Shown here: piece by piece, positions 3,554 through 57,122 of the stretch
Layout of the letters: each line of letters opens with the position of its first letter
Position numbering within the stretch: the first letter of the stretch is position 1
Assembly: GCA_964405685.1 (NCBI GenBank)
Contig: CAYOOP010000005.1
Span: 108,713-172,712 of the forward strand
From: an uncultured Rickettsiales bacterium
GTDB lineage: Bacteria > Pseudomonadota > Alphaproteobacteria > Rickettsiales > SXRF01
Reading direction: 5' to 3'
Length of the DNA: 64,000 bases
Notes under the pieces: model-generated
Databases searched by the model: none
Seen by the model: only the letters and a program-made list of their open reading frames with translations
What the model was told of the DNA's origin: nothing
Program-made: the position numbers and the translations under genes

Positions 3554-4366
3554 TTATTTTACAGGCATACAGGCAGTTTTTCCGGCGAGTGCTGCGCAGG
3601 TAGATTTGGCATCTACGCCGGAAGCGCGTAGACGGTAAAACACGCCCTTATCGCCCAAATCAGCCTTCAGCACGCTGTGGCCTTTGCCTGAAAGGGTAGG
3701 GTGTTTGGAGAGTTTTTTCCAAGCGGCTTGCGCTTCAGCTTCCGACTTGAATGCGCCAAGTTGTACGACACCGCTGCCTGCTTTTGCTTTGGCAACGGGT
3801 TTGGCTGCGGCCGCTTTTTTCACCACTTTGGGAGCAGGTACTTCTACTTTTTCACCGGGTATGGCCGAAACGCTGACGCTTGGCACTTCTTGCGGGGTTT
3901 CTACAGGCGCAGCGGCTACGGGTGCTGGTGCCGGAGCGGGTTGCATTTGCACGGTTTCAGCTGTTGCAGGGGCAGATGGTGTTTCCGCAGCCGCAGGCGC
4001 AGCATTTTCAATGGCAACGGGTTGTTCGGATTCCGGCATGAGTTTTTCAGCCGGTTTATCAACCGCGCCGGGAGCGGAGGAAATGGTTTCGAAGACCGAT
4101 TTGTCTTGATGGGGGAACTGCATCCCGCCGGGGTCAAGTGGCGCTTCTTTCGTGGGTGTGTTATCGGCTTCTACTACAAGAATATCCTCATCTTGAACAG
4201 AGGTGCTGCCCGCTTGATAGGCATACCAACCCAGGGAAACGAAGCCTGCGAGCGCAATCAGTAACACGGTGGCGGGGACGATCTTGGAACCAGAGGATTC
4301 ATATTCCTCTTCGTATTCATCTTCCGGTTCGTCATCGAACTCTTGCTCCTGGTGTCTTGCGCTCAT
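3554..4366 (-). CDS. SPOR domain-containing membrane protein
   Basis: 270 aa: acidic N-terminus, one TM helix, an Ala/Pro-rich linker and a C-terminal VVQLGAFKSEAEAQAAW...FYRLRA SPOR-like domain. Confidence 0.7.
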   Translation of the reverse strand: MSARHQEQEFDDEPEDEYEEEYESSGSKIVPATVLLIALAGFVSLGWYAYQAGSTSVQDEDILVVEADNTPTKEAPLDPGGMQFPHQDKSVFETISSAPGAVDKPAEKLMPESEQPVAIENAAPAAAETPSAPATAETVQMQPAPAPAPVAAAPVETPQEVPSVSVSAIPGEKVEVPAPKVVKKAAAAKPVAKAKAGSGVVQLGAFKSEAEAQAAWKKLSKHPTLSGKGHSVLKADLGDKGVFYRLRASGVDAKSTCAALAGKTACMPVK

Positions 4367-6105
4367 GATCTTAATTCCTCCATAGGTTCAACGCCGAGTG
4401 TGTTAAGCGCGGAAGCAACGGTGTAAGCCACTGCTTTTGCGAGTAATAGTCGTGCGGCTGTTTCTTCTTTAGCATCTTTTTTCAAAAAGCGAAGTGATAA
4501 ATCGCTATTGCCCTGGTTCCATAGTGCATGGAACGAAGCGGCGAGTTCTTGCGCGTAAAAGGCGATGCGGTGCGGCTCGCCGCTTTTCGCGGCGGACTCC
4601 ACGACACTCGGCCAACGCGCAAGCTCGCGGATGAGTGCTAAGATATCGGCATGTTGTAGATGTGTGAGGAGTTTGGGGTCTGCCGTTTCGGTGAGCGCAA
4701 GCGCTTCAGGGAATTCAGCGGCGGCAATGCGCAAAATCGATTTTGCGCGGGCGTGCGCATATTGCACGTAAAACACCGGGTTATCGCGCGTTTGGGTTTT
4801 GACGAGGTCAAAATCGAAATCGAGCGGGGCGTCGTTTTTACGCGTGAGCATAATGAAACGAAACACGTCTTTGCCAACCTCTTCGACGACTTCGCGCACG
4901 GTGATGAACGTGCCCGCACGTTTGGACATTTTCATCGGCTCGCCGCCGCGCATGAATTTGACGAGTTGGCAGAGCTTGACTTCCAGATTCACCTTGCCAT
5001 CCGACAGAGCAGATACCGCAGCTTGCAGACGCTTGACATAACCGCCGTGGTCCATGCCCAGCAGCATAATCAATTGATCATAGCCACGATTGATTTTGTC
5101 GAATTGATAGGCGATGTCGGGAGCGAAATACGTCCATGTGCCGTCGGATTTCTTGACCGCACGGTCAGCATCATCGCCAAAGGCGGTGGCTTTAAAGAGT
5201 GTTTGCGGACGGGGCTCCCAATCTTCCGGCGGTTTGCCTTTGGGTGGTTCCAGCACGCCTTCGTAGATGAGCCCTTTTTTTGCCAACCGATTTATAGCAT
5301 CTTCCACCTTACCAGCATTGGTAATTGCGCATTCGGAGGTGAAGACATCGTGGTGAATGCCAAGCAATGCCAAATCGCTTTTGATGAGTTGCATCATTGC
5401 TTCAAGCGCATAATCGCGGACGGTGGGAAGCCAAGTTTTACGGTCCTGTGCTAGCAATGTGCGGCCATGCAGCTTTACCAGTGTTTCACCGATGGGCATT
5501 AAATATTCGCCCGGATATAGACCTTCGGGAATTTCACCAATGGTTTCGCCAAGCGCTTCGCGGTAACGTAGATAGACGGAGTCTGCCACCTTATCCACCT
5601 GTGCGCCTGCGTCGTTGATGTAATATTCTTTGGTGACGCTGTATCCGGCTTTAATCAACAATGTTGCAAGCGCGTCGCCATAGATATAGCGTGCATGCCC
5701 TACATGCATGGGGCCGGTGGGGTTCACTGAAACATATTCGACATTCACCTTGATACCTTCGCCGATACGCGAATTCCCAAAGCCCACTTGTTCTTTCAAA
5801 ATGGTGGGGATGAGTGCTGTCCACGTCTCGGGTTTGAGCGTGAGGTTAATGAAACCTGGGCCAGCGACTTCGGCTTTGGCGACTTCGGGTAAGGCTTGGA
5901 TGAGTGGTAACAAAGTCGCGGCGATTTCGCGGGGATTTTTCTTGAGTTTCGAGCTCGCGACCATCGCCGCATTGGTTGCGATTTCGCCGTGGGCGATGTC
6001 TTTCGTGGGGCTTGCCTCAACGCCAGGGAATTCCGTTCCCGGAAATTCCTTGGCGAGGATAGATTTTACAGCGTTTGTAATGGTGGCGTAAGGGGTCTGG
6101 CTCAT
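4363..6105 (-). CDS. argS: Arginine--tRNA ligase
   Basis: ORF 4363..6123. Contains SVNPTGPMHVGHAR (HIGH-type) and MSKRAG (KMSK-type) motifs. Start likely at MSQTPY. Confidence 0.9.
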   Translation of the reverse strand: MSQTPYATITNAVKSILAKEFPGTEFPGVEASPTKDIAHGEIATNAAMVASSKLKKNPREIAATLLPLIQALPEVAKAEVAGPGFINLTLKPETWTALIPTILKEQVGFGNSRIGEGIKVNVEYVSVNPTGPMHVGHARYIYGDALATLLIKAGYSVTKEYYINDAGAQVDKVADSVYLRYREALGETIGEIPEGLYPGEYLMPIGETLVKLHGRTLLAQDRKTWLPTVRDYALEAMMQLIKSDLALLGIHHDVFTSECAITNAGKVEDAINRLAKKGLIYEGVLEPPKGKPPEDWEPRPQTLFKATAFGDDADRAVKKSDGTWTYFAPDIAYQFDKINRGYDQLIMLLGMDHGGYVKRLQAAVSALSDGKVNLEVKLCQLVKFMRGGEPMKMSKRAGTFITVREVVEEVGKDVFRFIMLTRKNDAPLDFDFDLVKTQTRDNPVFYVQYAHARAKSILRIAAAEFPEALALTETADPKLLTHLQHADILALIRELARWPSVVESAAKSGEPHRIAFYAQELAASFHALWNQGNSDLSLRFLKKDAKEETAARLLLAKAVAYTVASALNTLGVEPMEELRS

Positions 6106-6232
6106 GGGGTGCCAGTTACACATCTAATGCTTGCTTTTTCAAGCAATTTTATAATTGCCTCATGGCTGATGAATCCTACTGGATTCAAATAACGACAGGA
6201 AGTATAAGGAACATTCAATCTATGGGGGATGT

Positions 6233-6757
6233 ATGAAAAAGATCGTTTTTGCTTGTATGTGTGTGGTTGCCCTGGCGGCGTGTAAGCAGAAGTTTGGCCA
6301 AAATACCTATGGAGCGGGTGAGGTGGGCATCAGCCGCGCGGTGGAGTTTGGTACAATTCAATCGGTGCGTGAAGTGAACATTAAGGGCAAATCCTCCGGT
6401 ACGGGATTGTTGCTAGGCGGTGGTGCAGGGGCGGGCGGTGGTGCGTATGCAGGCAAAGGCTCCGGCAAATCGTGGGCAACCGCAGGTGGTGCGGTGGCGG
6501 GCGCGGCGCTCGGTGAGGCAATTGAGCAGGAGATTCAAAATTCCAACGGCTATGATTATATTATCTTGATGCAAAGCGGCGAGACGAAATCCATCGTGCA
6601 GGAGAAGATTGAGGGCGATGTGGTGTTTAAACGTGGTGATAAAGTCATGCTGCAATATTGTGATGCGGGCAAACACCAGAAGAAATGCGCACAGAGCTTC
6701 CAGCGCTTGTTGCCTGTCGATAGCTTCCCGCCATATGTGAAGAAAAAGCGGCGTTAA
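6233..6757 (+). CDS. Glycine-zipper outer-membrane lipoprotein (SlyB-like)
   Basis: 174 aa with lipobox VALAAC and a Gly-rich stretch LLLGGGAGAGGGAYAG...AGGAVAGAALG. Confidence 0.55.
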   Translation: MKKIVFACMCVVALAACKQKFGQNTYGAGEVGISRAVEFGTIQSVREVNIKGKSSGTGLLLGGGAGAGGGAYAGKGSGKSWATAGGAVAGAALGEAIEQEIQNSNGYDYIILMQSGETKSIVQEKIEGDVVFKRGDKVMLQYCDAGKHQKKCAQSFQRLLPVDSFPPYVKKKRR

Positions 6758-6760
6758 TGT

Positions 6761-6848
6761 CGTCATTGCGAGGAGGCAGCGCCGACAAAGCAATCCAACC
6801 TTGTAGCTAGGAGAGATGCTGGATTGCTTCACTACGCTCGCAACGACG
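6761..6848. repeat. MITE-like palindromic element, family B, copy 1
   Basis: Terminal inverted repeats CGTCATTGCGAG / CTCGCAACGACG and an internal caatccaa...ctggattgcttc pair. Fills the gap between two convergent stop codons. Second copy at 39340-39433. Confidence 0.75.
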
Positions 6849-6849
6849 G

Positions 6850-8007
6850 TTATAAAGCGCCACTCTGTTTGTAGGGCCGCATCTCAAAAATTTGCATGTA
6901 GGTATCAAGCGCGTAGCGGTCCGTCATGCCCGCGATATAGTCGCACGCGACGATAGCGGTTTGTTTGGTATTTGCACCATCCGTCAGCTTGCGCCATTCG
7001 GTGGGGAGGCATTCGGGTTCGCCCAGAAAGAAATTGAACAGTTGTTCGATCACACGCTTGGCTTTGCTCGACATGCGGTTGATGCGATAATGGCGGTACA
7101 TGCGTTCCATCAGGAAGGTTTTAAGCGCCTTGTTGGTGCGTTCCATTTCGGCGGAAAAGGTGACGAGAGGGTTGCCAGAATTTCTTACATCATCAATCGT
7201 TTTGATATTCGCTTTTTTGATATTTTCGCCTGTGGCGGCGAGCAAATCCATACACATGCGGTTGATCAACCGACGTGCAGCTTCGTGGGTTAGACGTTGT
7301 GTAGAAATGGTGGGGTGTTGTTTGTTCACTTCCGCAAACACATTGCCTACTTCTGGCACAGCCATCAAATCTTCCGGTGTAAACAGGCCTGCGCGGATGC
7401 CGTCGTCAATGTCGTGATTGTGGTAGGCGATGTCGTCTGCGAGTGAGGCAAGCTGGGCTTCCAGGCTTGGGTAGAGCGAAAGTTCAAGTTTGTTGATGTG
7501 TTCGAAGTCTACTAGTGCGCGGGGCAAAGGTTTTTTCACTGGCCCGTTGTGTTTCACCAGGCCTTCCAGTGTTTCGTAGGTGAGGTTGAGGCCATCAAAA
7601 TCCGCGTAGCGATGTTCGAGTTTGGTGACGATGCGGATGGTTTGCGCATTGTGGTCAAACCCGCCGAAAGATTCCATCGCGGCGCTCAAACCTTCCTCAC
7701 CCGCATGGCCAAAGGGCGGGTGGCCAAGGTCATGCGCGAGTGCGAGGGTTTCGGCGAGGTCTTCATTGAGTTTCAGCGCGCGTGCCAGAGAGCGCGCAAT
7801 CTGCGATACTTCCAAACTATGGGTAAGCCGCGTTCGGTAGTGGTCACCCTCGTGGTTCACAAACACCTGGGTTTTATATTCCAGCCTACGAAACGCAGTA
7901 GAATGTAAAATACGGTCGCGGTCGCGTTGATGCGGGCTGCGCATGCCACATTCTGGCTCTTTCAAAAATCGGCCGCGCGAATTTTCTGGGGTAATGGCGT
8001 AGGTCAT
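6850..8007 (-). CDS. dgt: dGTP triphosphohydrolase-like HD-domain protein
   Basis: 385 aa with RTRLTHSLEVSQIAR and LAHDLGHPPFGH HD motifs. Confidence 0.8.
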   Translation of the reverse strand: MTYAITPENSRGRFLKEPECGMRSPHQRDRDRILHSTAFRRLEYKTQVFVNHEGDHYRTRLTHSLEVSQIARSLARALKLNEDLAETLALAHDLGHPPFGHAGEEGLSAAMESFGGFDHNAQTIRIVTKLEHRYADFDGLNLTYETLEGLVKHNGPVKKPLPRALVDFEHINKLELSLYPSLEAQLASLADDIAYHNHDIDDGIRAGLFTPEDLMAVPEVGNVFAEVNKQHPTISTQRLTHEAARRLINRMCMDLLAATGENIKKANIKTIDDVRNSGNPLVTFSAEMERTNKALKTFLMERMYRHYRINRMSSKAKRVIEQLFNFFLGEPECLPTEWRKLTDGANTKQTAIVACDYIAGMTDRYALDTYMQIFEMRPYKQSGAL

Positions 8008-8060
8008 GTGTTGAGGCTACACCATCATCTCAGACGCAGCAAGTTCAAGCTATTGGGTGA

Positions 8061-8570
8061 TTAAACGTAAGAAAATGCTGCCGCTGTAGCTTGCTGCCTA
8101 ATGATTTGTTTGAGCCGATCAGCAATTGACCCGCTGTCACCCTCTCCGGCACTCACTAAATTCTGCTCAACCAATGTGTCTACTAGTTTAGGTGTAAGAG
8201 ATTGGCTTAAGGCAACACGCATTTTTTGTGCGGTATCTGTAGAGATAATTCCGTGTCTAAGAAGATTGCCAACGGAATCGCTATCGCCGGTATAATAGCG
8301 ACATTGGGTATCTCCTAGGGTTGCAGACGCAAAACAATTTACATCCGATTTAGATAGATAAAACTCGTTGCCGGGTTGGAAAAATTGTTGTGTTTTAGTT
8401 TCAGCGGGATCATCTGTTGATTCAGGCTCCCATTTTAATTCGATGCATAGGGGTTGGTTATTTTCAGGAATTATTGATGTGTTGCGTCTGGAAATACCGT
8501 CTACCATAGCAATATCATTAAGGGTCTTCTCAACATCAGCGGTGGGAAAGAAACGTACTTGTGTGGGCAT
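8061..8570 (-). CDS. Hypothetical protein (169 aa), apparently AT-richer accessory gene
   Basis: ORF with a GGAGG RBS, 11 bp downstream of the small ORF 8582-8734. No motif recognised. Confidence 0.5.
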   Translation of the reverse strand: MPTQVRFFPTADVEKTLNDIAMVDGISRRNTSIIPENNQPLCIELKWEPESTDDPAETKTQQFFQPGNEFYLSKSDVNCFASATLGDTQCRYYTGDSDSVGNLLRHGIISTDTAQKMRVALSQSLTPKLVDTLVEQNLVSAGEGDSGSIADRLKQIIRQQATAAAFSYV

Positions 8571-8581
8571 AAAACCTCCGA

Positions 8582-8734
8582 CTATACCAGTTGTTCGTTT
8601 TGGGGCGCTCGCGCATTGCGTCGTAAGACGTCAATGCTGACACGGGGATCAGGGGTATTGTCGTTATACTTAGATAACGTCGGCGGTTTTAAATTTGGTT
8701 GTTCCAATAGACTTTTGTTTTCGTCGTTTCCCAT
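8582..8734 (-). CDS. Small protein (50 aa from MGNDEN) with a TPDP...APQN tail related to the tails of ORFs 10001-10924 and 11668-12219
   Basis: Track ORF 8582..8794. The internal ATG at 8734 follows GGGGGA. The tail TPDPRVS...APQNEQLV aligns weakly to TPDPKLRGGGTITGPQQAVNVRAY. Confidence 0.4.
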   Translation of the reverse strand: MGNDENKSLLEQPNLKPPTLSKYNDNTPDPRVSIDVLRRNARAPQNEQLV

Positions 8735-8797
8735 AAATATCCCCCGTGTTTTTAATTTGAAGGCGAAACTAAACCTTGCGGTGAATAGGGGCACTCA

Positions 8798-8822
8798 GAT
8801 TTTTGTGAAACTTTTGTGACAG
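8798..8822 (-). promoter_or_regulatory. Pho-box-like 7-4-7 direct repeat, copy 3
   Basis: Minus strand reads CTGTCAC-AAAA-GTTTCAC-AAAA, 63 nt upstream of ATG 8734. The same architecture recurs at 10994-11016 and 12294-12316. Confidence 0.45.
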
Positions 8823-8838
8823 TCGCGTTGGAGGTAGG

Positions 8839-8867
8839 TTTACATGGAGGTGTATTCGCACTATACT
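8839..8867 (+). promoter_or_regulatory. Candidate sigma70-type promoter of erpA
   Basis: TTTACA (8839-8844), 17-nt spacer, TATACT (8862-8867). The -10 element ends 7 nt before the erpA ATG. Confidence 0.3.
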
Positions 8868-8874
8868 CGAAGGC

Positions 8875-9222
8875 ATGGAACCAAGCACCACGCCGTTTTC
8901 CGTGACTCCTTCCGCTGCTGCGCGCATTGCTGAATTGCTGCGCGATGAGCCGGCGGGGTCGGCATTTGTTGTTTCTGTTTTGGGCGGTGGATGTTCAGGG
9001 TTTCAATACCATTTTGATCTCGCTGTGAAGCCGCTGGAAGCAGGCGATATTGTGATTGAGGGGCAGGGCTCGAAAGTGTTGGTGGATGAGACCTCGATGG
9101 GGTTGCTTGCGGGGTCGGTGCTTGATTACACTGAAGACCTCGCGCAGGCCGGGTTTTCCATTAAAAACCCCAATGCTACCGCCAAGTGCGGTTGCGGGAA
9201 TAGTTTTTCGGTGAGTGTGTGA
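8875..9222 (+). CDS. erpA: Iron-sulfur cluster insertion protein (HesB/IscA family)
   Basis: 115 aa with GGGCSGFQY and the C-terminal CGCGNSF cysteine triad. Confidence 0.8.
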   Translation: MEPSTTPFSVTPSAAARIAELLRDEPAGSAFVVSVLGGGCSGFQYHFDLAVKPLEAGDIVIEGQGSKVLVDETSMGLLAGSVLDYTEDLAQAGFSIKNPNATAKCGCGNSFSVSV

Positions 9223-10004
9223 CTGTCTCTATCGCCACCTTCAACGTCAATTCCATCCGCGCGCGCCTGCCGAATGTGCTGGCGTGGCTGTGCGAGGCCA
9301 AGCCGGACATTGTGTTGTTGCAGGAACTCAAATGCGTAGATGAGCAATTCCCTGCGCTTGAAATTGAGGATTTGGGGTATAACTGCGCCATTTACGGCGA
9401 AAAAACCTATAACGGCGTGGCTATTCTCTCCAAATTCAAGTTGGAAGATGTTTCGCGCGGACTTCAAGGCGACGAGGCGGATACCCAGGCGCGGTATATT
9501 GAAGCACTGGTGCATACCCCTCTGGGTGTGATGCGTGTGGCCTCAGTCTATGTGCCCAATGGGCAGGAAGTAGGCAGCGATAAATTTGCTTATAAACTTA
9601 AATTTTTAGGCAGGTTATATGCAAAACTTAAAGCAATACTTGAATATGAAGAGATGGTGGTGATCGGTGGGGATTATAACGTCGCACCGGAGAATTTGGA
9701 TGTGTATGATTCTAGGCGTTTAAGTGAGACGGTATGCTTCCATTCCGAGGAGCGCAAGCGCTTGCGGAAAATACTCCACCTGGGGTATGCTGATGCCTTC
9801 CGGCAATTGCATCCGGATGATCCAGGTTTTTCCTGGTGGGATTATAGAGGTGGGGCATTTGAAGCCGGGCATGGCCTTCGCATCGACCATTTGCTGCTTT
9901 CGCCACAGGCGGCGGATCGCTTGACGGCGTGCGAAGTGCATACATCAGTCCGCGCGGCCGAAAAAGCCTCGGACCATGCGCCGGTGGTGGGGGTGTTTGG
10001 TTAA
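9219..10004 (+). CDS. xthA: Exodeoxyribonuclease III
   Basis: 261 aa with IATFNVNSIRARL, LQELK, GDYNVAP and SDHAPV motifs of the ExoIII/AP-endonuclease family. Confidence 0.85.
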   Translation: MTVSIATFNVNSIRARLPNVLAWLCEAKPDIVLLQELKCVDEQFPALEIEDLGYNCAIYGEKTYNGVAILSKFKLEDVSRGLQGDEADTQARYIEALVHTPLGVMRVASVYVPNGQEVGSDKFAYKLKFLGRLYAKLKAILEYEEMVVIGGDYNVAPENLDVYDSRRLSETVCFHSEERKRLRKILHLGYADAFRQLHPDDPGFSWWDYRGGAFEAGHGLRIDHLLLSPQAADRLTACEVHTSVRAAEKASDHAPVVGVFG

Positions 10005-10924
10005 TACGCGCGGACGTTTACGGCTTGTTGTGGGCCTGTTATGGTGCCACCACCTCTTAGTTTCGGGTCAGGCGTCCGATCCAGCGGTACTGTGGCAGAA
10101 CGCTGTGAGGCTTCAATCTGCTGCTCCCATGAAGTTTCGAGGGTTTCAAAGCGTTGCTGGCGTCGCAGCGATGCAAACACAGATTCAAATTCCTCCGCCG
10201 TCATAGCTATCACTTGACCCGTGGTGGCTTCATCTTTGACAAGTCCAGCAATCACATCCTGTTTTAGTCGTGCTTGTTGTTCAGGAGTAAGATCGGCGAG
10301 TGTGAACTCGGCGAATGCAGGCATGGTAGCTAATTCCGCGAGTTGTTGACGTCCTGTAACCTTAGGAGCGGTATGATTGTTAACCTGTATTTGCCAGTAC
10401 AGTAGGTCCGACAAGCTCTTTCTGTTGACTGCGGCATCCATTTCATTACGCCAGTGTTCCGTTAGTTCGGCATGGGTTGTCTCGTTTTTCCTTACTCTGG
10501 CTATAAGCATGTCGAATTCTGTTCCGTATGATCTCCGCCGTTCATCATCATTGGTAGGTGCAGCAAGCTGATCTCCTGCGTGTTTAGCCATAAAATTTCG
10601 GATGACGTCTGCTGTGGAATTATGGGTGCGATCTTCAATATACTGCGTTCTTAAAGTTGCAATTTCTTCGGGTGACAGGCTGGCAAGCATGACTTCTGCT
10701 TTTGCGGCAATTGTGGCGGAAAGACTGAGTAATTCCAAGTTATGTCCTGTAATACGATTGTGCGCTATTTCGCTTTTGTAATGACTAAGCTTCTTAAAGG
10801 CATCGAGCGGTGTTTGCGGATCAGCATCTTTCATCAGGCGATCGAATGAACCGGTGTCGTTTACGTCCATCCTGGCCTTGAGTGCTTGAAAGACCGGAAG
10901 TTCATTAAGGTCAATGTTAATCAT
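10001..10924 (-). CDS. Hypothetical protein P1 (307 aa), member of the tail-sharing family
   Basis: AAGGAG RBS. Two internal LA(S/D)L(S/T)PE(E/Q)...L(R/K) modules at aa 80-94 and 209-222. C-terminus is RTPDPKLRGGGTITGPQQAVNVRAY. Confidence 0.6.
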   Translation of the reverse strand: MINIDLNELPVFQALKARMDVNDTGSFDRLMKDADPQTPLDAFKKLSHYKSEIAHNRITGHNLELLSLSATIAAKAEVMLASLSPEEIATLRTQYIEDRTHNSTADVIRNFMAKHAGDQLAAPTNDDERRRSYGTEFDMLIARVRKNETTHAELTEHWRNEMDAAVNRKSLSDLLYWQIQVNNHTAPKVTGRQQLAELATMPAFAEFTLADLTPEQQARLKQDVIAGLVKDEATTGQVIAMTAEEFESVFASLRRQQRFETLETSWEQQIEASQRSATVPLDRTPDPKLRGGGTITGPQQAVNVRAY

Positions 10925-10993
10925 AAAGGACTCCTTCTGTTAGTTGTAGTTTGCCTTGCGTTTAACATTGCGTGGGAGGAGGCAGCAATGCAC

Positions 10994-11016
10994 GATTTAT
11001 GAATTTTTTGTGACAG
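10994..11016 (-). promoter_or_regulatory. Pho-box-like 7-4-7 direct repeat, copy 1
   Basis: Minus strand reads CTGTCAC-AAAA-AATTCAT-AAAT, 69 nt upstream of ATG 10924. Confidence 0.45.
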
Positions 11017-11020
11017 GGGC

Positions 11021-11063
11021 AAAGCCTCCGACCACGCGCCGGTGGTGGGGGCGCTGGGGTGAA
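11021..11063. repeat. Displaced copy of the xthA 3' terminus
   Basis: aaagcctccgaccacgcgccggtggtgggggcgctggggtgaa aligns to xthA 9963-10004 (aaagcctcggaccatgcgccggtggtgggggtgtttggttaa), stop codon included. Confidence 0.75.
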
Positions 11064-11098
11064 TATGTGTCGAATTCTGTTGAGAAAACTAGAAATTA

Positions 11099-11347
11099 AT
11101 GCCACAATCGGAGGCAGAGGTTTTGCTTATGCCTAGCATGAAAGAAATAACGGACGCGCTTGCTGTTCTGCCACTTGACGAACAAGAAAAGGTGCTGCAG
11201 GCGCTGCGCGCGGCTGACAGTGAGCGCACATTCTCGGAATTGGAAATAACAACGTTAAGAACAAGGGCGGCAACACCACCTGATGCTTATCAACCCTGGG
11301 AACGGGTGCGCGATAATATTTTGCTTGGGCTTATGTCCAAGCAATGA
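11099..11347 (+). CDS. Putative addiction-module antitoxin component
   Basis: 82 aa, or about 72 aa from MPSMKE at 11129. MKEITDALAVLPLDEQEKVLQAL resembles the small helical antitoxins that pair with ParE/RelE toxins. 4-bp ATGA overlap with the next ORF. Confidence 0.55.
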   Translation: MPQSEAEVLLMPSMKEITDALAVLPLDEQEKVLQALRAADSERTFSELEITTLRTRAATPPDAYQPWERVRDNILLGLMSKQ

Positions 11348-11667
11348 ATCCTCTTTCGCTCGTGGTCCATCCAGACGTAGCCTCAGACCTCAACTCTTTT
11401 ACAAAAAGCTATGAATACCTTGTACGCGGGCTGGGCACGCAGTTCGTGTTGGAGGTAGACTTTGTATTTGGGCGCATTGCTATTTTGCCGCGCTCATACC
11501 AGCTTTGTTTCGGCGAATTCCGGCGAGCGTTGCTGGATCGCTTTCCATTCGCGATAGGGTTTCGGGTGACAGACAAGGCGATTTATGTTGACGGAATCTT
11601 TCCAACCAAGGCCAGCCCTGACCGTATTGCAGATTTATTGAACGCACGCGCTGGTGGTGGTGTTTAG
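11344..11667 (+). CDS. ParE/RelE-family type II toxin
   Basis: 107 aa. RRALLDRFPFAIGFRVTDKAIYVDGIFPTKASP is a typical ParE/RelE C-terminal pattern. The last codons (ARAGGGV) lie inside a copy of the xthA 3' end. Confidence 0.6.
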   Translation: MNPLSLVVHPDVASDLNSFTKSYEYLVRGLGTQFVLEVDFVFGRIAILPRSYQLCFGEFRRALLDRFPFAIGFRVTDKAIYVDGIFPTKASPDRIADLLNARAGGGV

Positions 11668-11745
11668 CTAATACGCGCGGACATTTACGGCTTGTTGTGG
11701 GCCTGTTATGGTGCCACCACCGCTTAGTTCTGGGTCAGGCGTTTG
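11644..11745. repeat. ~100-bp repeat of the xthA-end / P1-end junction
   Basis: 11644-11745 aligns to 9975-10078 at roughly 90% identity by eye. It spans the xthA-like stop region and the last ~75 nt of the convergent gene. Confidence 0.8.
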
Positions 11746-12219
11746 CCTGGGGATTAGGACTAAAGATTTTGCCCATTTCTTACGTCTGTCGCTTAAAGAC
11801 ATTTGGCTGGTGTTGCGGATTTCATCGATGATAGGATCAACAAATATTTTACTAGAAGTTCTGTATCGATCTCTCGGACACAATGCAGGGTCAGATCCCT
11901 CAGGATCTGTGCGGTCCATCAAGTCCATGATCTCCTTTCGTTTCCAGCCCACTATTTGTTCCGTTAAGAATCCACGTAGAGGTTCCCATTGCTCATCTGT
12001 TAAGGACGCAAGTCGATGTTCTGCCTCCGCAGCCTTGCCGGATGAGATATATTCTCCGATAGGCGCAACCAAGGCGTCACGCTCCTGTTCGGTGCCAGAA
12101 AGAAGGGCCTTGTGTAACTGTCGAATAAGGTCTCTTGAGTGCACATACGTTAGCAAAACATCTAGGTTCTCTTCTGTCGACAATTGAGACGGCTCTGTTG
12201 GAGATGATATTTTGGACAT
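11668..12219 (-). CDS. Hypothetical protein P2 (183 aa), member of the tail-sharing family
   Basis: C-terminus QTPDPELSGGGTITGPQQAVNVRAY has its last 17 aa identical to P1. One LASLTDEQWEPLRGF module at aa 70-84. Confidence 0.6.
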   Translation of the reverse strand: MSKISSPTEPSQLSTEENLDVLLTYVHSRDLIRQLHKALLSGTEQERDALVAPIGEYISSGKAAEAEHRLASLTDEQWEPLRGFLTEQIVGWKRKEIMDLMDRTDPEGSDPALCPRDRYRTSSKIFVDPIIDEIRNTSQMSLSDRRKKWAKSLVLIPRQTPDPELSGGGTITGPQQAVNVRAY

Positions 12220-12293
12220 TGTTTAGGTCTTTCGCATTAAAAGTTTCAAGAGTCGGGAGATGGTACTGTGTCGCTTTATGCACAGCAATTAAC

Positions 12294-12316
12294 GATTTGT
12301 GAATTTTTTGTGACAG
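12294..12316 (-). promoter_or_regulatory. Pho-box-like 7-4-7 direct repeat, copy 2
   Basis: Minus strand reads CTGTCAC-AAAA-AATTCAC-AAAT, 74 nt upstream of ATG 12219, in the divergent intergenic region shared with the MarR gene. Confidence 0.45.
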
Positions 12317-12412
12317 TGGCTGTGGCCGTTGGTCTTGGTGGGGTGCAGCGTACATAAACCCTATCTTAACCACGATATGCTAGGATTAGCGGTGGATTAA
12401 CATGCCTGGAGA

Positions 12413-12880
12413 GTGGCTATGAAACAGCTTTATACCGAAACGATTTTGCTCATTGAGCGGCTGCACCGCCGGTTTTTAGATGTGGTTAATACTGAGCTGG
12501 AACGCCTGCGCATTGATGACATCAACAACGTGCAAACGCTGATTTTGTATAACATCAGCACGGAACAACTGACCATCGGTGAGTTGACCAACCGTGGTTA
12601 TTACCTTGGCTCCAACGTGTCGTATAACGTGAAGAAACTGGTGGAGAATAAATATCTGCTGCAGGAAAAAGCACCGCACGACAAGCGTTCGGTGCGGATT
12701 AAGCTCTCCGAAAAAGGCCTGAAGCTGTGCCAGCAGATTGATGCGCTGTATGAGCGCAATGTCGACGCGTTGAAAAACACTACGCCAACCGAAGCCGATA
12801 TTCAGCGGACTAACGATACGCTTTCGCGCTTGGAGCGGTTTTGGACCGATTATATTAATACGGCGTATAAGCTGAAATAA
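12413..12880 (+). CDS. MarR-family winged-helix transcriptional regulator
   Basis: 155 aa. LTIGELTNRGYYLGSNVSYNVKKLVENKYLLQEKAPHDKRSVRIKLSEKG has the MarR wHTH pattern. Start may be ATG 12419. Confidence 0.7.
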   Translation: MAMKQLYTETILLIERLHRRFLDVVNTELERLRIDDINNVQTLILYNISTEQLTIGELTNRGYYLGSNVSYNVKKLVENKYLLQEKAPHDKRSVRIKLSEKGLKLCQQIDALYERNVDALKNTTPTEADIQRTNDTLSRLERFWTDYINTAYKLK

Positions 12881-12884
12881 TTCA

Positions 12885-12972
12885 CGTCATTCCCGCGTAG
12901 GCGGGAATCTGTTCGCTTATAAAAATAGTGATTACTTTGCGAGTGGATCCCTGACCTCACGCGGGGATGACG
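12885..12972. repeat. MITE-like palindromic element, family A, copy 1
   Basis: CGTCATTCCCGCGTAGGCGGGAATC ... GCGGGGATGACG. Occupies the whole gap between the convergent MarR and thiD stop codons. Confidence 0.75.
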
Positions 12973-12973
12973 C

Positions 12974-13867
12974 TTATTTATGTTCCCACATATGCCACAG
13001 CGGGCCGGTGCCTTTGCCTAGTTTAGGCGCGTTTGTGATGGCGCCGGCGACGTAAGTGTGGGCGCGTTCCACCGCATTTTTTAAATCCATTCCGCTACCG
13101 ATAAATGTTGCGAGCGCCGAGGCCATGGTGCAGCCGGTGCCGTGGGTGTTTTTGGCCTTCAAGCGCGGTGCTTCAAAGACGGTGACGGTGGTGCCGTCAA
13201 AGAGGATGTTGAACACGTTCTTTCCCTCCAAATGCCCGCCTTTGACGAGCACGTTCCTGGGGCCAAGCTTGTGAATACGTTTTGCCGCTTCAATCATGTC
13301 TGCTTGCGAGATTATTTGCATTCCTGCCAGAATTTCTGCTTCAGGAATGTTGGGAGTAACTAAGTAAGCAAGAGGCAGGAGTTTGGTTTTAAGCGCAGCT
13401 ACCGCTTCTGTTTGCAGCAGTGCCGCACCACCTTTTGCGACCATGACGGGGTCGACCACCAACGGAATTGTTCCCCCCGCTTGCGGGGGGATACAGGGGG
13501 GAATACCCCCACCCACTGCGCTAACGCCTTTGGCGTAAGCTCCGTTACCCTCCCCCGCGAGCGGGGGAGGTTTACTAAGGGCAGATACCACTGCCTCAAT
13601 TGCCGCACTGGTCGAAAGCATTCCCGTTTTAATGGCATCCGCGCCGATATCGCTTAAGCACAATTTGATTTGCTGGGTGATGAACGTGGGTGGCACGTCG
13701 TGAATATCGAAGACGCCTTGTGTGTTTTGTGCGGTTAAGGCGGTGATCGCCGTCATCGCGTAACCGGCTAGGGCCGTTACGGTTTTGAGGTCGCCTTGAA
13801 TGCCGGCGCCGCCGCCGGAATCGGAACCGGCGATGATGAGAATGCGTGGGATCATACTAGTTGTCAT
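12974..13867 (-). CDS. thiD: Hydroxymethylpyrimidine/phosphomethylpyrimidine kinase with an in-frame repeat-derived insertion
   Basis: 297 aa with IAGSDSGGGAGIQGDLKT, VVDPVMVAKGG and THGTGCT ThiD motifs. An extra ~33 aa (PPPLAGEGNGAYAKGVSAVGGGIPPCIPPQAGG) is encoded by repeat D1. Confidence 0.85.
   Translation of the reverse strand: MTTSMIPRILIIAGSDSGGGAGIQGDLKTVTALAGYAMTAITALTAQNTQGVFDIHDVPPTFITQQIKLCLSDIGADAIKTGMLSTSAAIEAVVSALSKPPPLAGEGNGAYAKGVSAVGGGIPPCIPPQAGGTIPLVVDPVMVAKGGAALLQTEAVAALKTKLLPLAYLVTPNIPEAEILAGMQIISQADMIEAAKRIHKLGPRNVLVKGGHLEGKNVFNILFDGTTVTVFEAPRLKAKNTHGTGCTMASALATFIGSGMDLKNAVERAHTYVAGAITNAPKLGKGTGPLWHMWEHK
13470..13570. repeat. G/C-hairpin palindromic element, family D, copy 1 (inside thiD, in frame)
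   Basis: TTCCCCCCGCTTGCGGGGGGA and CCTCCCCCGCGAGCGGGGGAGG terminal hairpins. Its reverse complement matches 57886-58013 apart from a ~27-bp internal indel. Confidence 0.8.
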
Positions 13868-13941: not shown

Positions 13942-14433
13942 CTATTTGCAAATAGTGTAGGTCATATGGCCGAAGATGACTTCCACCTTATCGTGGCCAA
14001 AGGGCAGCAGGCATTGGCGGAATTTGACGTTGTTGCTTTTGCGGTCGGTGAATTCGCTGTTGACGATGAGGGGTTTGCGTTCGTGCATGATGTGTTTGTA
14101 GGTATCCATCAGCTTGGCAGCGGAGAGCGAGACGATTTGCGCCTCGGGGTGTTCGATGAGTTCTTCGCGATAGGCATCGATAATGCCGGGACCCAAATAA
14201 GTGTAGTTGAATTCCTTGTTTTCGAAATCGCGCACTTGGACAATGAAGCATTGGTGCCAGATGTTGTGCAGCGCGTTGTGATCGGGGTCGATGTCGTTTT
14301 CTACCGGCAGGCTGCGGTCATTGCGAATTTTATCCCAATAGTTGATGAGCTGCAGGGTGCAGCGGCGCTCGTCTTCCATATTGCGGGTGGTGCCGGTGCT
14401 GGTTGTGGTGACGGTTTGGAATGCAGGAGACAT
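13942..14433 (-). CDS. Small PAS-like (PAS_5/DUF1457-type) protein, paralog 1
   Basis: 163 aa. Shares a pattern with the next ORF: YW...R......P.E.DI.PD......W..CF.V.......F.YTYLG ... FRQCLLPFG. Confidence 0.45.
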   Translation of the reverse strand: MSPAFQTVTTTSTGTTRNMEDERRCTLQLINYWDKIRNDRSLPVENDIDPDHNALHNIWHQCFIVQVRDFENKEFNYTYLGPGIIDAYREELIEHPEAQIVSLSAAKLMDTYKHIMHERKPLIVNSEFTDRKSNNVKFRQCLLPFGHDKVEVIFGHMTYTICK

Positions 14434-14442
14434 GAACTAAGC

Positions 14443-14916
14443 CTAGATGATTTTATACCGTATGCCGCCCAAGATCGCTTCGACGCTGTCGCCGTTTCCG
14501 AGAGGGAGCAGGCATTGGCGGTAAAGCACCGTGCGGCCAAGCGCGTTGGTCAGGCCTCCCTCTTCGAGGACGGGCTTCTTGGTGTCAATGACTTTTTGAT
14601 AGCCTTTGCTGAGTTTCGAGGCGTTGAAATTCTCCAAACTATCGATGCCGCCGTTTTTGATGCCTTCGGCGTACATATAGGCAACGTTGGTGCCGAGATA
14701 GGTGTAATTGTAATCGGGTTGCAGGAGGTCTTGCGCGTGGACGAGGAAGCAATCGTCCCAGAGATCTTCGATGTCGTCGGGGTTGATGTCGGCTTCACAC
14801 GGCATCACCTTGTTGCCGCGCACACGTTCCCAATAGGCTACGAGCCTGAGCGTAATGCGGCGTTCTATTCCCGGTAGTGCAACCGCGTCTGGAGGTGGTA
14901 TTTCGTACATTTGCAT
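14443..14916 (-). CDS. Small PAS-like (PAS_5/DUF1457-type) protein, paralog 2
   Basis: 157 aa. Collinear similarity to 13942-14433 (YWERVRGNKVMPCEADINPDD...CFLV...YNYTYLG...YRQCLLPLG). Confidence 0.45.
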   Translation of the reverse strand: MQMYEIPPPDAVALPGIERRITLRLVAYWERVRGNKVMPCEADINPDDIEDLWDDCFLVHAQDLLQPDYNYTYLGTNVAYMYAEGIKNGGIDSLENFNASKLSKGYQKVIDTKKPVLEEGGLTNALGRTVLYRQCLLPLGNGDSVEAILGGIRYKII

Positions 14917-16087: not shown

Positions 16088-19000
16088 TTAACCCACGGCG
16101 GCGGTTAACTGTCCTATAAACGGCTTAAGCTTCGGTACAATCTTCGTTTTATCCTCAAAATCCTCCATATAAACCAGCGATTGGTCGGGCTTCAACTTCA
16201 GGCGGGTGGGGTGTTTCCCGATGAAGGTAATGAGTTTTTCCACTTCGCGTACCGCGCGCTCTTTGAAGCTAATCACCGCGCCTTTCGGGCCGACATCGAG
16301 CCGTGCAATGGCGGCTTTGAAGCAGAGTTGTTTGAGGAGGACGGTGGAAAGCAGGTTTTCGACTTCTTCGGGAAGCGGGCCAAAACGGTCGATGAATTCG
16401 GCGTGAAGTGCTTCCACCTCCTCTTCCGTTTTCATGCTGGCGGCGCGTTTGTAGAGGCCCATCCGTAATTCTAAATCCGCCACGTAGGTTTCGGGGATCA
16501 AGACCGGAATGCCAAGGTTGATTTGGGGAGACCACTCCTGCACACGCACTTCTGCTTCGCCGCTGTGCTTGAGTGCGGCAATCGCCTCTTCCAACATATG
16601 TTGATAAAGCTCGACACCGACTTCGCGAATATGGCCGGATTGTTCTTCGCCGACGAGATTTCCAAATCCGCGGATGTCCATGTCGTGGCTGGCAAGCGTG
16701 AATCCGGCGCCTAGGCGGTCAAGCGTTTGCATGACTTCGAGACGGCGCACCGCTTGGTGGGTGATGGTTTGCGGGGGGATAATAAAATACGCATACGCCC
16801 GCTGCTTGCCGCGACCGACACGGCCGCGCATTTGGTAGAGCTGGCCGAGGCCAAAACGATCGGCGCGGTTGATAATAATCGTGTTGGCGGTTTGTACATC
16901 AAGGCCAGATTCGATGATGGAGGTGGAAATCAGCACGTCGACCTCGCCGTCGTAAAACTTCGTCATGATGGATTCGAGTTCGCTTGGGCTCATCTGTCCG
17001 TGCGCGAGCGCGAAGGAAAGTTCGGGCGTAAGCTCGCGCATTTGCTTGTACAAATCATCCATATCGGCGATGCGCGGGGTGACGATGAAGCTGCGGCCGC
17101 CGCGGTGTTTTTCGCGCATCAACGCTTCGCGGATGATGACGGGGTCAAACGGCATGACGAAGCTGCGGATGGCGAGGCGATCAATGGGTGGTGTCGTAAT
17201 CAAACTCAAATCGCGCACGCCGGAGAGGGCGAGTTGCAGCGTGCGCGGAATGGGCGTTGCCGTAAGTGTCAGCACGTGCACGTCGGTTTTCAATTCCTTC
17301 AAACGCTCTTTTTGTTTCACGCCGAAATGCTGTTCTTCATCGACTATCACGAGGCCGAGGTTTTTGAACTCAATGCCTTTGGCAAGCAGTGCATGTGTGC
17401 CGATGACGATGTCGATGGTGCCATCAGCAATGCCTTCTTTCGTGGCTTTTTGAGTGTTAGCATCTACTAGCCGTGAAAGCTGGCTGACGCGAATGGGGAA
17501 ATCGGCGAAGCGATTTTTAAACAGAGTATAATGCTGGCGTGCGAGGAGACTCGTGGGGACGATAATCGCCACTTGGCGATTAGTTGTCAGTTGACAGTTG
17601 TCAGTTGACAGGAACGCTTCACTGTCAACTGGTAACTGGTGACTGGTAACTACCGCGAAAGCGGCGCGCAGTGCCACTTCGGTTTTGCCGAAGCCGACGT
17701 CGCCGCAGACCAGACGGTCCATAGGTTTGCCGCTGTTTAAGTCGGCAAGCACATCGTCAATGGCACGTGCCTGATCTTCCGTTTCGGCAAAGCCGAAGCC
17801 ACGTGAAAATTCTTCAAGCGTGCCGCTTTCGGCGTGGATGCGTGCACCTGCTTTGAGCGCGCGCTGCGCGGCGGTTTTGATGAGTGCTTCAGCTGCAAGC
17901 TGGATGCGCTCTTTCATACGCGATTTACGCATTTGCCACTGCGCGGCACCGAGTTTATCGAGCGCTACACCTTCGGTTTCCGAGCCGAAGTGCGACAGCA
18001 CATCCATGTTCTCTACGGGTACAAAAAGCTTATCGTCATTATCGTAAATGATTTTCAGGCAATCATGTGCTGCGCCGAGCACGTTCAGTGTTTCCAGTGT
18101 TTCAAACCGGCCGATGCCGTGTTCGCGATGTACCACCAATTCGCCGTATGCGAACTGCGCGGCTTCTTGCAAAAAGACATCGGTTTTCTTTTTGCTTTTG
18201 CGATCTGCAATCCGCACGCCGAGCAACTCGGTTTCGGTCAAGATGGTAAAATCAGGTGTAGCAAAACCTTTCGCCAGCGGTAGATGCGCAACGCCAACGC
18301 CGTGTTCAGGAATGCTTTCAAGATTGTGGAGATGATGCAGATTAATCGCGTCAATCCCCTCAATACGCAAGCGCTCACGCAGGCGATCCGCCGAGCCGCG
18401 CGTGGCGGCGGCGAGGATGGTAGGGGTCGCTGAAAGCCTCTGTTTCAGGGCGGCGTAGGGGTTGGAATCAGTGATGGCGAGCACGGCTTGTGTGCGTAGG
18501 GATGTTTTGCCTTCGAAGGGGGTAAGCGTCACGCTTTCGTGTGCAGCGAGTTCGCTTTCGCTTAGGTAAAATGCTGCAGGTGGTAGCGGATGATAAGGGC
18601 TGGCGTGGGGAAGCTTGTCGGTGCGCAAACGTGCATCGTAATAATCCTGAATCAAGGCTTCGCGTTCGGCGAGGATATCAGCGGTGGTGGGCGCCCACAC
18701 GAGTGTTGCGCCGGGTGCGTAGTCTGGCAAGGTGGCGGTGGTTTCGTAGAAGAGAGGGAGAAAAAATTCGAGGCCGGGGATGCGCGCGCCGCTCGAGATT
18801 GCTTCATACATCGCACTCCCTTGTTGCTGCGCGCCGAAGTGTTCGCGGTAGCGTGTGCGAAAGCATTCGATGCTGTCTTGCGTCAGCCAGATTTCGCTCG
18901 CGGCTTCTAAAAATAAACTATCCGCATCGGCAAGGCTACGCTGGGTGAAGGGGTCAAACCGGCGAATGGTTTCGATGGTGTTGCCGAAGAGATCGAGGCG

Positions 19001-56978: not shown

Positions 56979-57122
56979 ATGAGAAAACTATGGATTTTAT
57001 TGGCGCTACCCTTGCTGCTTGCGGCATGTGACAAAAAAATTGAAGACTTAAAAAGCCCATGCGTTGGTGCGGAAGGTAGTCCGTGTGACAAGCGCGCGCC
57101 AGCCGGTAACCCGCAAAGCTAG
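56979..57122 (+). CDS. Tiny lipoprotein (47 aa)
   Basis: Hand-translated MRKLWILLALPLLLAACDKKIEDLKSPCVGAEGSPCDKRAPAGNPQS. Lipobox LLAAC and AGGAGGG RBS. Below the track cutoff. Confidence 0.45.
   Translation: MRKLWILLALPLLLAACDKKIEDLKSPCVGAEGSPCDKRAPAGNPQS

Follow-up and report, generated by a model that had tools for sequence, protein, structure and literature searches.

The 64,000-nucleotide stretch of an uncultured Rickettsiales bacterium analysed here (the window, to which all coordinates refer, with strands given as + or -) carries a stack of small inserted units directly behind xthA, the gene for exodeoxyribonuclease III (261 amino acids; 9219-10004, +; Pfam Exo_endo_phos, E 4e-26). 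The stack spans 2,363 bp (9992-12354) between xthA and a marR-family gene and consists of an orphan gene (P1), a toxin-antitoxin (TA) pair, and a second orphan gene (P2), with copies of the xthA terminus at its junctions. We read this arrangement, with modest confidence, as the product of serial site-specific integration at an attachment (att)-like site in the xthA 3' end by a recombinase acting in trans. The evidence comes from one genome and four short comparator contigs. The original prediction, made from the letters of the window, was of repeated integration at an att site or of cassette accretion at the xthA 3' end, and it is supported by insertion polymorphism among relatives.

Copies of the xthA terminus and the state of the site in relatives

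The last 42 bp of xthA, its working terminus (A1, 9963-10004, +), recur at 11021-11062 (A2, +), with 35 of the 42 positions identical in an ungapped alignment and the stop codons in register (TAA in A1, TGA in A2). Comparison of the whole 64-kb window with itself recovered this pair (9963-10006 versus 11021-11065; 84% identity, BLAST E 1e-5) together with a junction repeat of 94 nt (9982-10075 versus 11649-11742; 91%, E 9e-27) and a third repeat of 38 nt, termed D3 (10983-11020 versus 12283-12320; 89%, E 4e-6). D3 corresponds to what the prediction had named the operators of P1 and P2, which is a tentative label. The first two had been predicted, as a recurrence of about 43 bp of the xthA end with a stop codon in the equivalent place and as a longer junction copy of about 90% identity; both are confirmed, and the end of the former is corrected from 11063 to 11062. 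A 17-nt core (CGCGCCGGTGGTGGGGG, up to three mismatches) matches the window at 9977, 11035, and 11647 only, where 0.31 matches are expected. Since A2 also matches true xthA 3' ends from distant genomes, it originates from xthA and does not represent a generic repeat. The conserved left end of the P units (B), D3, and the bodies of the P genes have no occurrence in 1.29 Mb of related loci. An unvarying content flanked by a generic dispersed repeat, which had been named as the outcome that would contradict the prediction, is not what we found, as the content varies among relatives and the core is confined to three sites in the window.

P1 encodes 307 amino acids (10001-10924, -) and is convergent with xthA, the stop codons of the two genes overlapping. 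The conserved left end of the P1 cassette (B1, 10005-10078, -) codes for a 25-amino-acid tail shared with P2 (TPDPxLxGGGTITGPQQAVNVRAY) and is 91% identical to its counterpart in P2 (B2, 11671-11745, -), and the conserved right end (D3-1, 10983-11020) lies 59-96 nt upstream of the P1 start. There follows A2, which encodes KASDHAPVVGALG and a stop and which would be a displaced former xthA terminus serving as attR of P1 and attL of the TA module; A1 would be attL of P1. The TA operon comprises an antitoxin-like open reading frame (ORF) of 72 amino acids (11129-11347, +), with a predicted promoter-like site at 11080-11108, and a putative ParE-like toxin ORF of 107 amino acids (11344-11667, +), the two overlapping by 4 bp (ATGA). 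A3 (11644-11670, +) is a chimeric junction and the putative attR of the TA module. P2 (183 amino acids; 11668-12219, -) has B2, which again codes for the shared tail, as the left end of its cassette and D3-2 (12283-12320) as the right end, 64-101 nt upstream of its start. A G-rich spacer of 34 nt (A4, 12321-12354) separates the P2 cassette from the conserved right flank (12355-12880, +), made up of the marR operator/promoter (TAAACCCTATCTTAACC...) and the marR-family gene itself (12419-12880).

The terminus copies had been said to delimit three units. This holds for P1 and the TA module, which are flanked on both sides, and for the left side of P2, but the right junction of P2 is unrecognisable. 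A third, weak remnant of the xthA end had been suggested at about 12323-12350; in three scoring schemes, this segment showed no significant similarity to the xthA termini of the window, L048, L050, L051, and L135 or to the toxin end of L048, the best shuffle result being p ~0.04-0.06, uncorrected, and we do not retain the suggestion. The segment 12321-12354 occupies the place predicted for the original xthA terminus after its displacement.

The comparators are four metagenomic contigs of relatives, identified by protein searches (L135, L051, L048, and L050), each with an xthA orthologue at 82-85% amino acid identity. The five genomes are roughly equidistant, and L135 is the nearest to the window. 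This alphaproteobacterium is poorly sampled: in a scan of GTDB genomes with XthA, the nearest species representative was 60% identical. The synteny upstream of xthA (argS-HD-erpA-xthA) is conserved in many Alphaproteobacteria, whereas the downstream side is not, which made the scan uninformative for the xthA-marR interval. Among 80 loci from a MarR scan of metagenomes, none exceeded 78% identity and none had a same-strand xthA upstream.

L135 represents the empty site. Its marR operator (TAAACCC...) starts 2 nt past the xthA stop codon, in an intergenic region of 67 bp. Positions 1-796 of L135 align to 9196-9991 of the window and positions 812-966 to 12355-12508, and these breakpoints identify 9992-12354 as inserted material. 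In L051, 320 bp of unrelated filler separates xthA from marR. L048 has xthA, then the TA two-gene operon, then marR, with neither P1 nor P2; its positions 9041-9682 align to 11021-11662 of the window at 85.8% identity, so that A2 plus the operon in the window corresponds to the xthA terminus plus operon of L048. The interval, whose comparison among relatives had been proposed with the prediction, is thus empty in L135, holds a 320-bp filler in L051 and the TA module alone in L048, and contains P1, the TA module, and P2 in the window. In L050, xthA lies in a rearranged context without an insertion. There, xthA comes immediately after mfd, with a gene for a YkuD-domain protein behind it (L050 7352-8455, compared with 9217-10006 and 16146-17575 of the window), which makes the start of xthA a rearrangement breakpoint in this clade as well.

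The proposed crossover core and mode of insertion

The sole block common to all three xthA-type copies is GCGCC/TGGTGGTGG. The core (CGCGCCGGTGGTGG) in its best form, in A2 and L048, reads ACCAC-GCGCCG-GTGGT, with a 6-bp spacer between 5-bp arms that are inverted repeats of each other, and A1 holds ACCAT-GCGCCG-GTGGT. On either side of the block, the copies part company. To its right, A1 continues as the P2-borne terminus does (GTGTTTGGTTAATACGCG versus GTGTTTAGCTAATACGCG; GTGTTT.G.TAATACGCG) and A2 continues as the L048 type (...TGAATATGTGTCG versus ...TGAATATCTGTCG; TGAATAT.TGTCG); to its left, A3 continues as the toxin gene. The left half of A3 (CACGCGCTGGTGGTGG) matches A2 at 15 of 16 nt, and its right half (GTGTTTAGCTAA) matches the P-type xthA terminus. 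With left and right halves mixed in this way, every junction is a chimera of old and incoming DNA, with the crossover within the same ~16 nt, as conservative recombination would predict. On this pattern, the present last ~12 nt of xthA (GTGTTTGGTTAA) were supplied by the P1 cassette. A2 (...APVVGALG and stop) and A3 (...VVVFS and stop, as read in the xthA frame) both retain an open frame and a stop codon, as expected of former functional xthA termini, and the differences of A2 from A1 and L048 are mostly synonymous or conservative.

The mechanism that we propose is as follows. The last ~25-42 bp of xthA would act as an attachment site that takes up small modules one after another. Each incoming module would bring its own xthA-like terminus and thereby rebuild the end of xthA, and the previous terminus would be pushed downstream to persist as a direct repeat. 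Crossovers would take place in the core (G)ACCAC-GCGCCG-GTGGT(GG). Because no recombinase is recognisable in the window or the modules, the joining enzyme would have to act in trans from a gene elsewhere; a site-specific recombinase of the tyrosine type is the most likely candidate. The most parsimonious order would start from an empty site as in L135 and proceed through P2 and the TA module to P1, each entering on the xthA-proximal side. What the data show directly is the repeats, the polymorphic insertion, the chimeric junctions, and the separate history of the TA module; circular intermediates, a recombinase, the succession of insertions, and any function of D3 and the tail are what we infer from this pattern. 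The rebuilt terminus, the displaced direct repeats, the short shared crossover site with its dyad, and the reuse of this site across events and genomes together form the footprint of conservative site-specific integration and tandem accretion. Entry of P2 at the copy in the toxin end was considered as another order and set aside, as it needs an extra deletion of the ~25 nt found behind the toxin in L048 and draws no better support from the distal junction.

Several observations weigh against this proposal. The enzyme is hypothetical: the 64-kb window has no recognisable recombinase gene, and none is linked to the modules of L048. In agreement with the earlier statement that the window lacks an integrase or transposase, Pfam searches over its ORFs of at least 150 amino acids (~46) gave neither and returned housekeeping functions only (nuo, rpoN, mfd, an AddB-like nuclease, and two-component systems). 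Among the sequences examined, there is no second occupied site, circular form, or excision product. The oldest event lacks its expected attR, since the distal junction of P2 (12321-12354) is unlike the xthA terminus. L050 has a good core yet no insertion. The 5-6-5 dyad falls within a conserved coding motif (DHAPVV) and may be a coincidence. No further member of the P family was found in 5.8e9 proteins, JGI (Joint Genome Institute) metagenomes, or IMG/VR, searches in which tail-only matches of less than ~85% identity fall below the significance threshold. Finally, the comparators are four contigs only, all about equally distant (XthA identity 77-85%).

The quality of the core may be related to the occupancy of the site. 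L135 has a degenerate core at 770-809, with GCGCCTGTTATGG in place of GCGCCGGTGGTGG, and L051, whose xthA is 8 codons longer, reads GCACCGGTGACCGG at 1180-1225; the uninserted site of L050, with its good core, does not fit such a relationship.

A possible, though less probable, explanation is that the modules were joined without a dedicated recombinase. DNA from relatives, received by transformation, gene transfer agents, or similar routes, would have been joined by general recombination at the conserved G-rich xthA terminus, either after circularisation of a fragment, by a single crossover of the Campbell type, or by homology-facilitated illegitimate recombination, with the terminus as a hot spot. 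The modules are tiny and without a mobility gene, no integrase or transposase was found in the window, and no segment of xthA is better conserved from genome to genome than the shared block, which is hence a natural homology anchor. The distal junction of P2 is without a recognisable repeat, as illegitimate joining would give. Where the xthA copies read GCCGGTGG, A3 carries the Escherichia coli Chi sequence GCTGGTGG (11650-11657), which may or may not have a bearing on recombination in this AddAB-type organism; a gene for an AddB-like nuclease (PDDEXK_1) is located at 57122-59965. The swapping of cassettes between conserved genes also resembles the minimal mobile elements of Neisseria, whole-gene cassettes that lie between conserved genes and are moved by homologous recombination in their flanks, without duplication of the gene ends. 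As in those elements, different cassettes or none are found between two conserved genes and mobility genes are absent; unlike them, the units described here are bounded by copies of the xthA terminus. Replacement through flanking homology leaves no duplication of the target end, whereas three junctions have one here. Further, the identical stretches amount to 15-16 nt, and RecA-type exchange normally needs more. Three independent events, plus the one in L048, would all have to cross within the same ~16 nt. The ready-made xthA terminus and stop codon on the P cassettes suggest adaptation to the site.

Local segmental duplication is an improbable origin of the stack. A unit of xthA terminus, P gene, and D3 native to the lineage would have undergone tandem duplication, followed by insertion of the TA module between the two units and by replacement or divergence of the gene bodies, so that P itself would not be mobile. 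P1 and P2 do have their two ends in common, arranged and oriented alike, the P family is known from this genome only in the database searches reported here, and a weak body motif, AExxLAxL(S/T)xE, is compatible with distant paralogy (internal repeat of P1, p = 0.001; P2 versus P1, p = 0.046). However, ends of 89-91% identity beside bodies that are unalike (846 versus 474 nt), with sharp borders between them, are not the product of simple divergence. The nearest relative, L135, has no P gene and an intact site, so that P is not ancestral here. The duplicated P units should also adjoin, and the TA module would still need an extra insertion at the same core.

It is very unlikely that the repeats led the assembly to join non-contiguous sequences: short-read unitigs do break in the 94-nt repeat, where the graph is ambiguous and L001 could join L134 or L046, but the exact common stretch (~38 nt) is shorter than ordinary reads, copy-specific variants on both sides fit the order of the window, independent Logan unitigs from the same samples (L001, L134, and L046) tile 6801-13499 at 100% identity and break only in the exact part of that repeat, the joins D3-A2-TA and A3-B2 each lie within a single unitig (L134), and L048 independently has the xthA-TA-marR backbone.

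Two other candidates were rejected. Transposition as an insertion sequence (IS) or miniature inverted-repeat transposable element does not fit, as the left ends of P1, P2, and the TA module match their reverse-complemented right ends no better than shuffles do, giving no terminal inverted repeats, and the flanking repeats (16-42 nt) exceed the length of a transposase target duplication. A structured RNA or attC-like hairpin at the junctions was likewise discarded; the junction repeats folded on both strands no better than shuffles (z -1.8 to +1.0), and Rfam searches over 8500-13000 with E up to 1 found no RNA family.

The toxin-antitoxin module and the P cassettes

The TA module has a history separate from that of its surroundings. 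Between the window and L048, the proportion of differing synonymous sites (pS) is 0.46 for the 72-amino-acid gene and 0.32 for the 107-amino-acid gene (synonymous divergence, dS, 0.70 and 0.41, respectively), compared with a pS of 0.64-0.71 (dS 1.5-2.3) for eight flanking core genes. As the genomes are about equidistant, the dS of the TA genes is below that of the core genes, and the nearest relative L135 lacks the module, the TA pair is judged to have been exchanged or acquired horizontally well after the lineages split, at the same landing spot in both genomes. By the same dS test, we regard it as a different module from the P units and as mobile independently of them.

In the window, the TA module is flanked by A2 (CACGCGCCGGTGGTGG) and A3 (CACGCGCTGGTGGTGG), whose agreement at 15 of 16 nt was reached by 0-1 of 1000 shuffles, depending on the scoring scheme. 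In L048, it is bounded by an imperfect direct repeat of 22-31 nt, the longest of its kind in the region (31 columns; p ~0.001 with lenient and 0.04 with strict scoring), which reads CGCGCCGGTGGTGGGGGTGTTG on the xthA side and CGCGCCGGCAGTAGTGGGATTG on the toxin side. The toxin ORF (11344-11667) terminates inside the third xthA-like copy, as predicted, and its last ~7 codons run into the repeat. A distant homologue of the toxin ends with ...NQRSN, so that the additional AGGGV or AGSSGIDE carried by the window and L048 represents read-through into the junction repeat.

The label of the 107-amino-acid product as a ParE-like toxin is marginal and derives from a profile match together with the layout of the operon. 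A profile of three toxin sequences matched ParE2 in the PDB (8c26_A; E 0.0015, a marginal value) over residues 6-84 (~80 residues), the match on which the earlier description of the protein as ParE-like depends; toxin and antitoxin had no significant match in Pfam, NCBIfam, PADLOC, or PHROGs. The order of secondary structure elements in its AlphaFold model, strand-helix-helix-helix-strand-strand, is ParE-compatible, in a model from a three-sequence alignment with a pLDDT (predicted local distance difference test) of 50 that is too poor for a fold search. As in ParE/RelE modules, a small antitoxin ORF comes first and overlaps a toxin ORF of ~100 codons by 4 bp; unlike in those modules, there are no Pfam, NCBIfam, or PADLOC matches, and the C-terminal region with the conserved histidine reads FPTKA. 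The toxin family has three members among 5.8e9 proteins, the homologues being P0004 (87%) and P0005 (49%). The small upstream antitoxin ORF overlapping the toxin ORF is also present in L048, and a homologous pair is found on L049. That 12-kb JGI contig carries the only distant toxin homologue (49%) with an antitoxin-like ORF upstream (7890-8571), as well as genes for ParA, a replication initiator (RPA), methyltransferases, and an IS transposase, a plasmid- or phage-like context. No xthA-like core follows the toxin on L049.

P1 and P2 appear from their shared ends to be one cassette family, in which a variable orphan gene is placed between conserved termini. The two proteins have their last 25 residues alone in common (88% identity), and the end shared by the ORFs reads ...GGGTITGPQQAVNVRAY. 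At the DNA level, identity is 80-100% over the xthA-like terminus and a 72-bp tail segment, falls to ~25% within ~10 nt, and rises again in D3 alone; directly beyond 10078 it is at background. The bodies, of 846 and 474 nt, are unalignable as DNA, which fits cassettes whose ends act in cis. They may be very distant relatives, as the motif AExxLAxL(S/T)PE of the internal repeat in P1 (p = 0.001) recurs weakly in P2 (P2 versus P1, p = 0.046). P1 has a strong Shine-Dalgarno sequence (AAGGAG). P2 is predicted to be helical with a coil or disordered tail, and its single-sequence AlphaFold model (pLDDT 44) is too poor for a fold search. Only one of the three frames of the 72-bp segment is open, and both P ORFs enter it in that frame; the substitutions in the tail are too few to separate a functional peptide from a translated cis element.

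Searches with the P proteins returned little beyond the two genes themselves. P1 matched only itself and P2 among 5.8e9 proteins. An exhaustive HMMER search with P2 against 1.84e9 representatives gave itself, the tail of P1, and a spurious repeat protein (P0006) only. The ORFs of P1, P2, and a third insertion described below (P0) had no significant match in Pfam, NCBIfam, PADLOC, or PHROGs. A profile of the tail had no match in JGI metagenomes or IMG/VR, and the B core had none as DNA in IMG/VR.

D3 contains tandem TTTGTGA(A/C) repeats spaced 11 nt apart and probably contributes to the promoter of the P genes. On the P-gene strand, it reads CTGTCAC-AAAA-AATTCA(C/T)-AAAT. The Pho box bound by PhoB consists of two 7-bp direct repeats with 11-bp periodicity that replace the -35 element (PMC4415409). 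The first D3 repeat matches the E. coli sequence CTGTCAT at 6 of 7 positions and the second at 3 of 7; D3 thus resembles half a Pho box, as a lead only, and the window contains no pho-regulon gene with which to compare it. No sigma-70-type promoter was predicted on the P-gene strand.

A more speculative idea, to which we give little credence, is that a chromosomal recombinase directed at the xthA 3' end would recognise the ~150-bp conserved junction of the cassettes (D3, the xthA mimic, and the tail segment) as its attP. In that case, the P units would be miniature, promoter-bearing single-gene cassettes, like those of integrons but independent of them, and the 25-amino-acid tail might be a common export or targeting signal for the sampling of orphan proteins.

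Known parallels, and other insertions near the stack

Serial accretion at the 3' ends of genes, including that of integrase-less cis-mobilizable elements (CIMEs), has been described for the ICESt1/CIME family at fda in Streptococcus thermophilus and for the ssrA islands of Dehalococcoides (PMC5704250, PMC3146451). The tandem accretion of such integrase-less, att-flanked elements appears to be the closest known parallel to the stack. Both involve successive integration into the 3' end of a single housekeeping gene, with each element giving a replacement terminus and the displaced termini left as direct repeats; integration genes are missing from the resident units of both, and the site is empty or differently filled in relatives. 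Att-like flanking repeats that include the target 3' end amount to 42 nt for P1 and 15 of 16 nt for the TA module (22-31 nt in L048), and P2 has one on its left only. Presence/absence polymorphism with a precise empty site is found in L135, L051, and L048. The units differ from CIMEs in size, being 0.6-1.06 kb with one gene or a TA pair, whereas CIMEs extend over several to tens of kb. They also differ in that no related integrase-bearing element was found in any collection searched and in that the P units, with their conserved ends, look purpose-built and not like decayed islands. The top hits of a full-text literature search contained no report of xthA as an att or integration site.

The stack also resembles integron cassettes, including the TA cassettes of superintegrons. 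Tiny, mostly single-gene, recombinase-less units are stacked on the promoter-proximal side, ORFs read into a conserved cis element at their 3' ends, a TA pair is part of the array, and the newest unit would lie nearest the attachment site. Unlike in integrons, there is no intI, attI, or Pc, no ORF of at least 150 amino acids has a phage-integrase-family match, and the array begins in xthA. The attachment site lies within a protein-coding 3' end, and the P cassettes carry an upstream element and are transcribed towards the site. There is no attC-like imperfect palindrome and no GTTRRRY at any boundary; the one RYYYAAC, at 10960, falls within a 5' leader.

Events of this kind are known, and what is unusual is the scale of single genes or a TA pair, the two cassette-like units with orphan cargo, and the use of the coding 3' end of xthA as the target. 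A footprint of 3'-end accretion known from large islands that bear, or once bore, an integrase is seen here at the scale of single genes; relatives provide a series from empty through partly filled to filled sites, and the separate history of the TA module is measurable. If the recombinase acting in trans is real, the locus would represent a second, non-integron route by which single genes are stacked and exchanged at a fixed chromosomal address, and the xthA terminus would be a defined, portable landing pad. If general recombination produced it, the locus would still be a well-documented case in which recombination concentrates at a short, conserved end of a coding sequence. In either event, P1 and P2, sharing a tail and an upstream element, may be a family under shared regulation or with shared targeting in this uncultured alphaproteobacterial lineage.

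Upstream of the stack, the window and L048 also differ by small segments. The segment 8008-8856 (the P0 insertion) is missing in L048, where the HD-domain gene and erpA lie 13 bp apart. It contains two minus-strand orphan ORFs, 8061-8570 (169 amino acids) and 8582-8794 (70 amino acids), the latter with DNTPDPRV, which is like the start of the P1/P2 tail (p ~0.01). A D3-like motif (TTTGTGAAACTTTTGTGACAG) at 8802-8823, in the right end of the segment, is the third and last in the window; beyond this motif, the ends of the P0 insertion have nothing in common with those of P1 and P2. The -35 hexamer of the best match to an erpA promoter (8839-8867) also comes from this segment. In L048, a toxin-antitoxin pair of the RelE/MqsA type (5470-6137) lies between argS and the next gene. 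The window has no such pair between the corresponding genes (argS 4363-6123, next gene 6233-6757), making this another small TA indel.

Downstream of the stack, the marR leader has an inverted repeat at 12371-12405 (TTAACCAC-N17-GTGGATTAA), outside the inserted material. Its position is kept in L135, L048, and L051, and it is likely to be the operator of MarR. Further on, the minus-strand neighbours downstream of thiD (13942-14916) are two paralogous genes for PAS_5-domain proteins of 163 and 157 amino acids.

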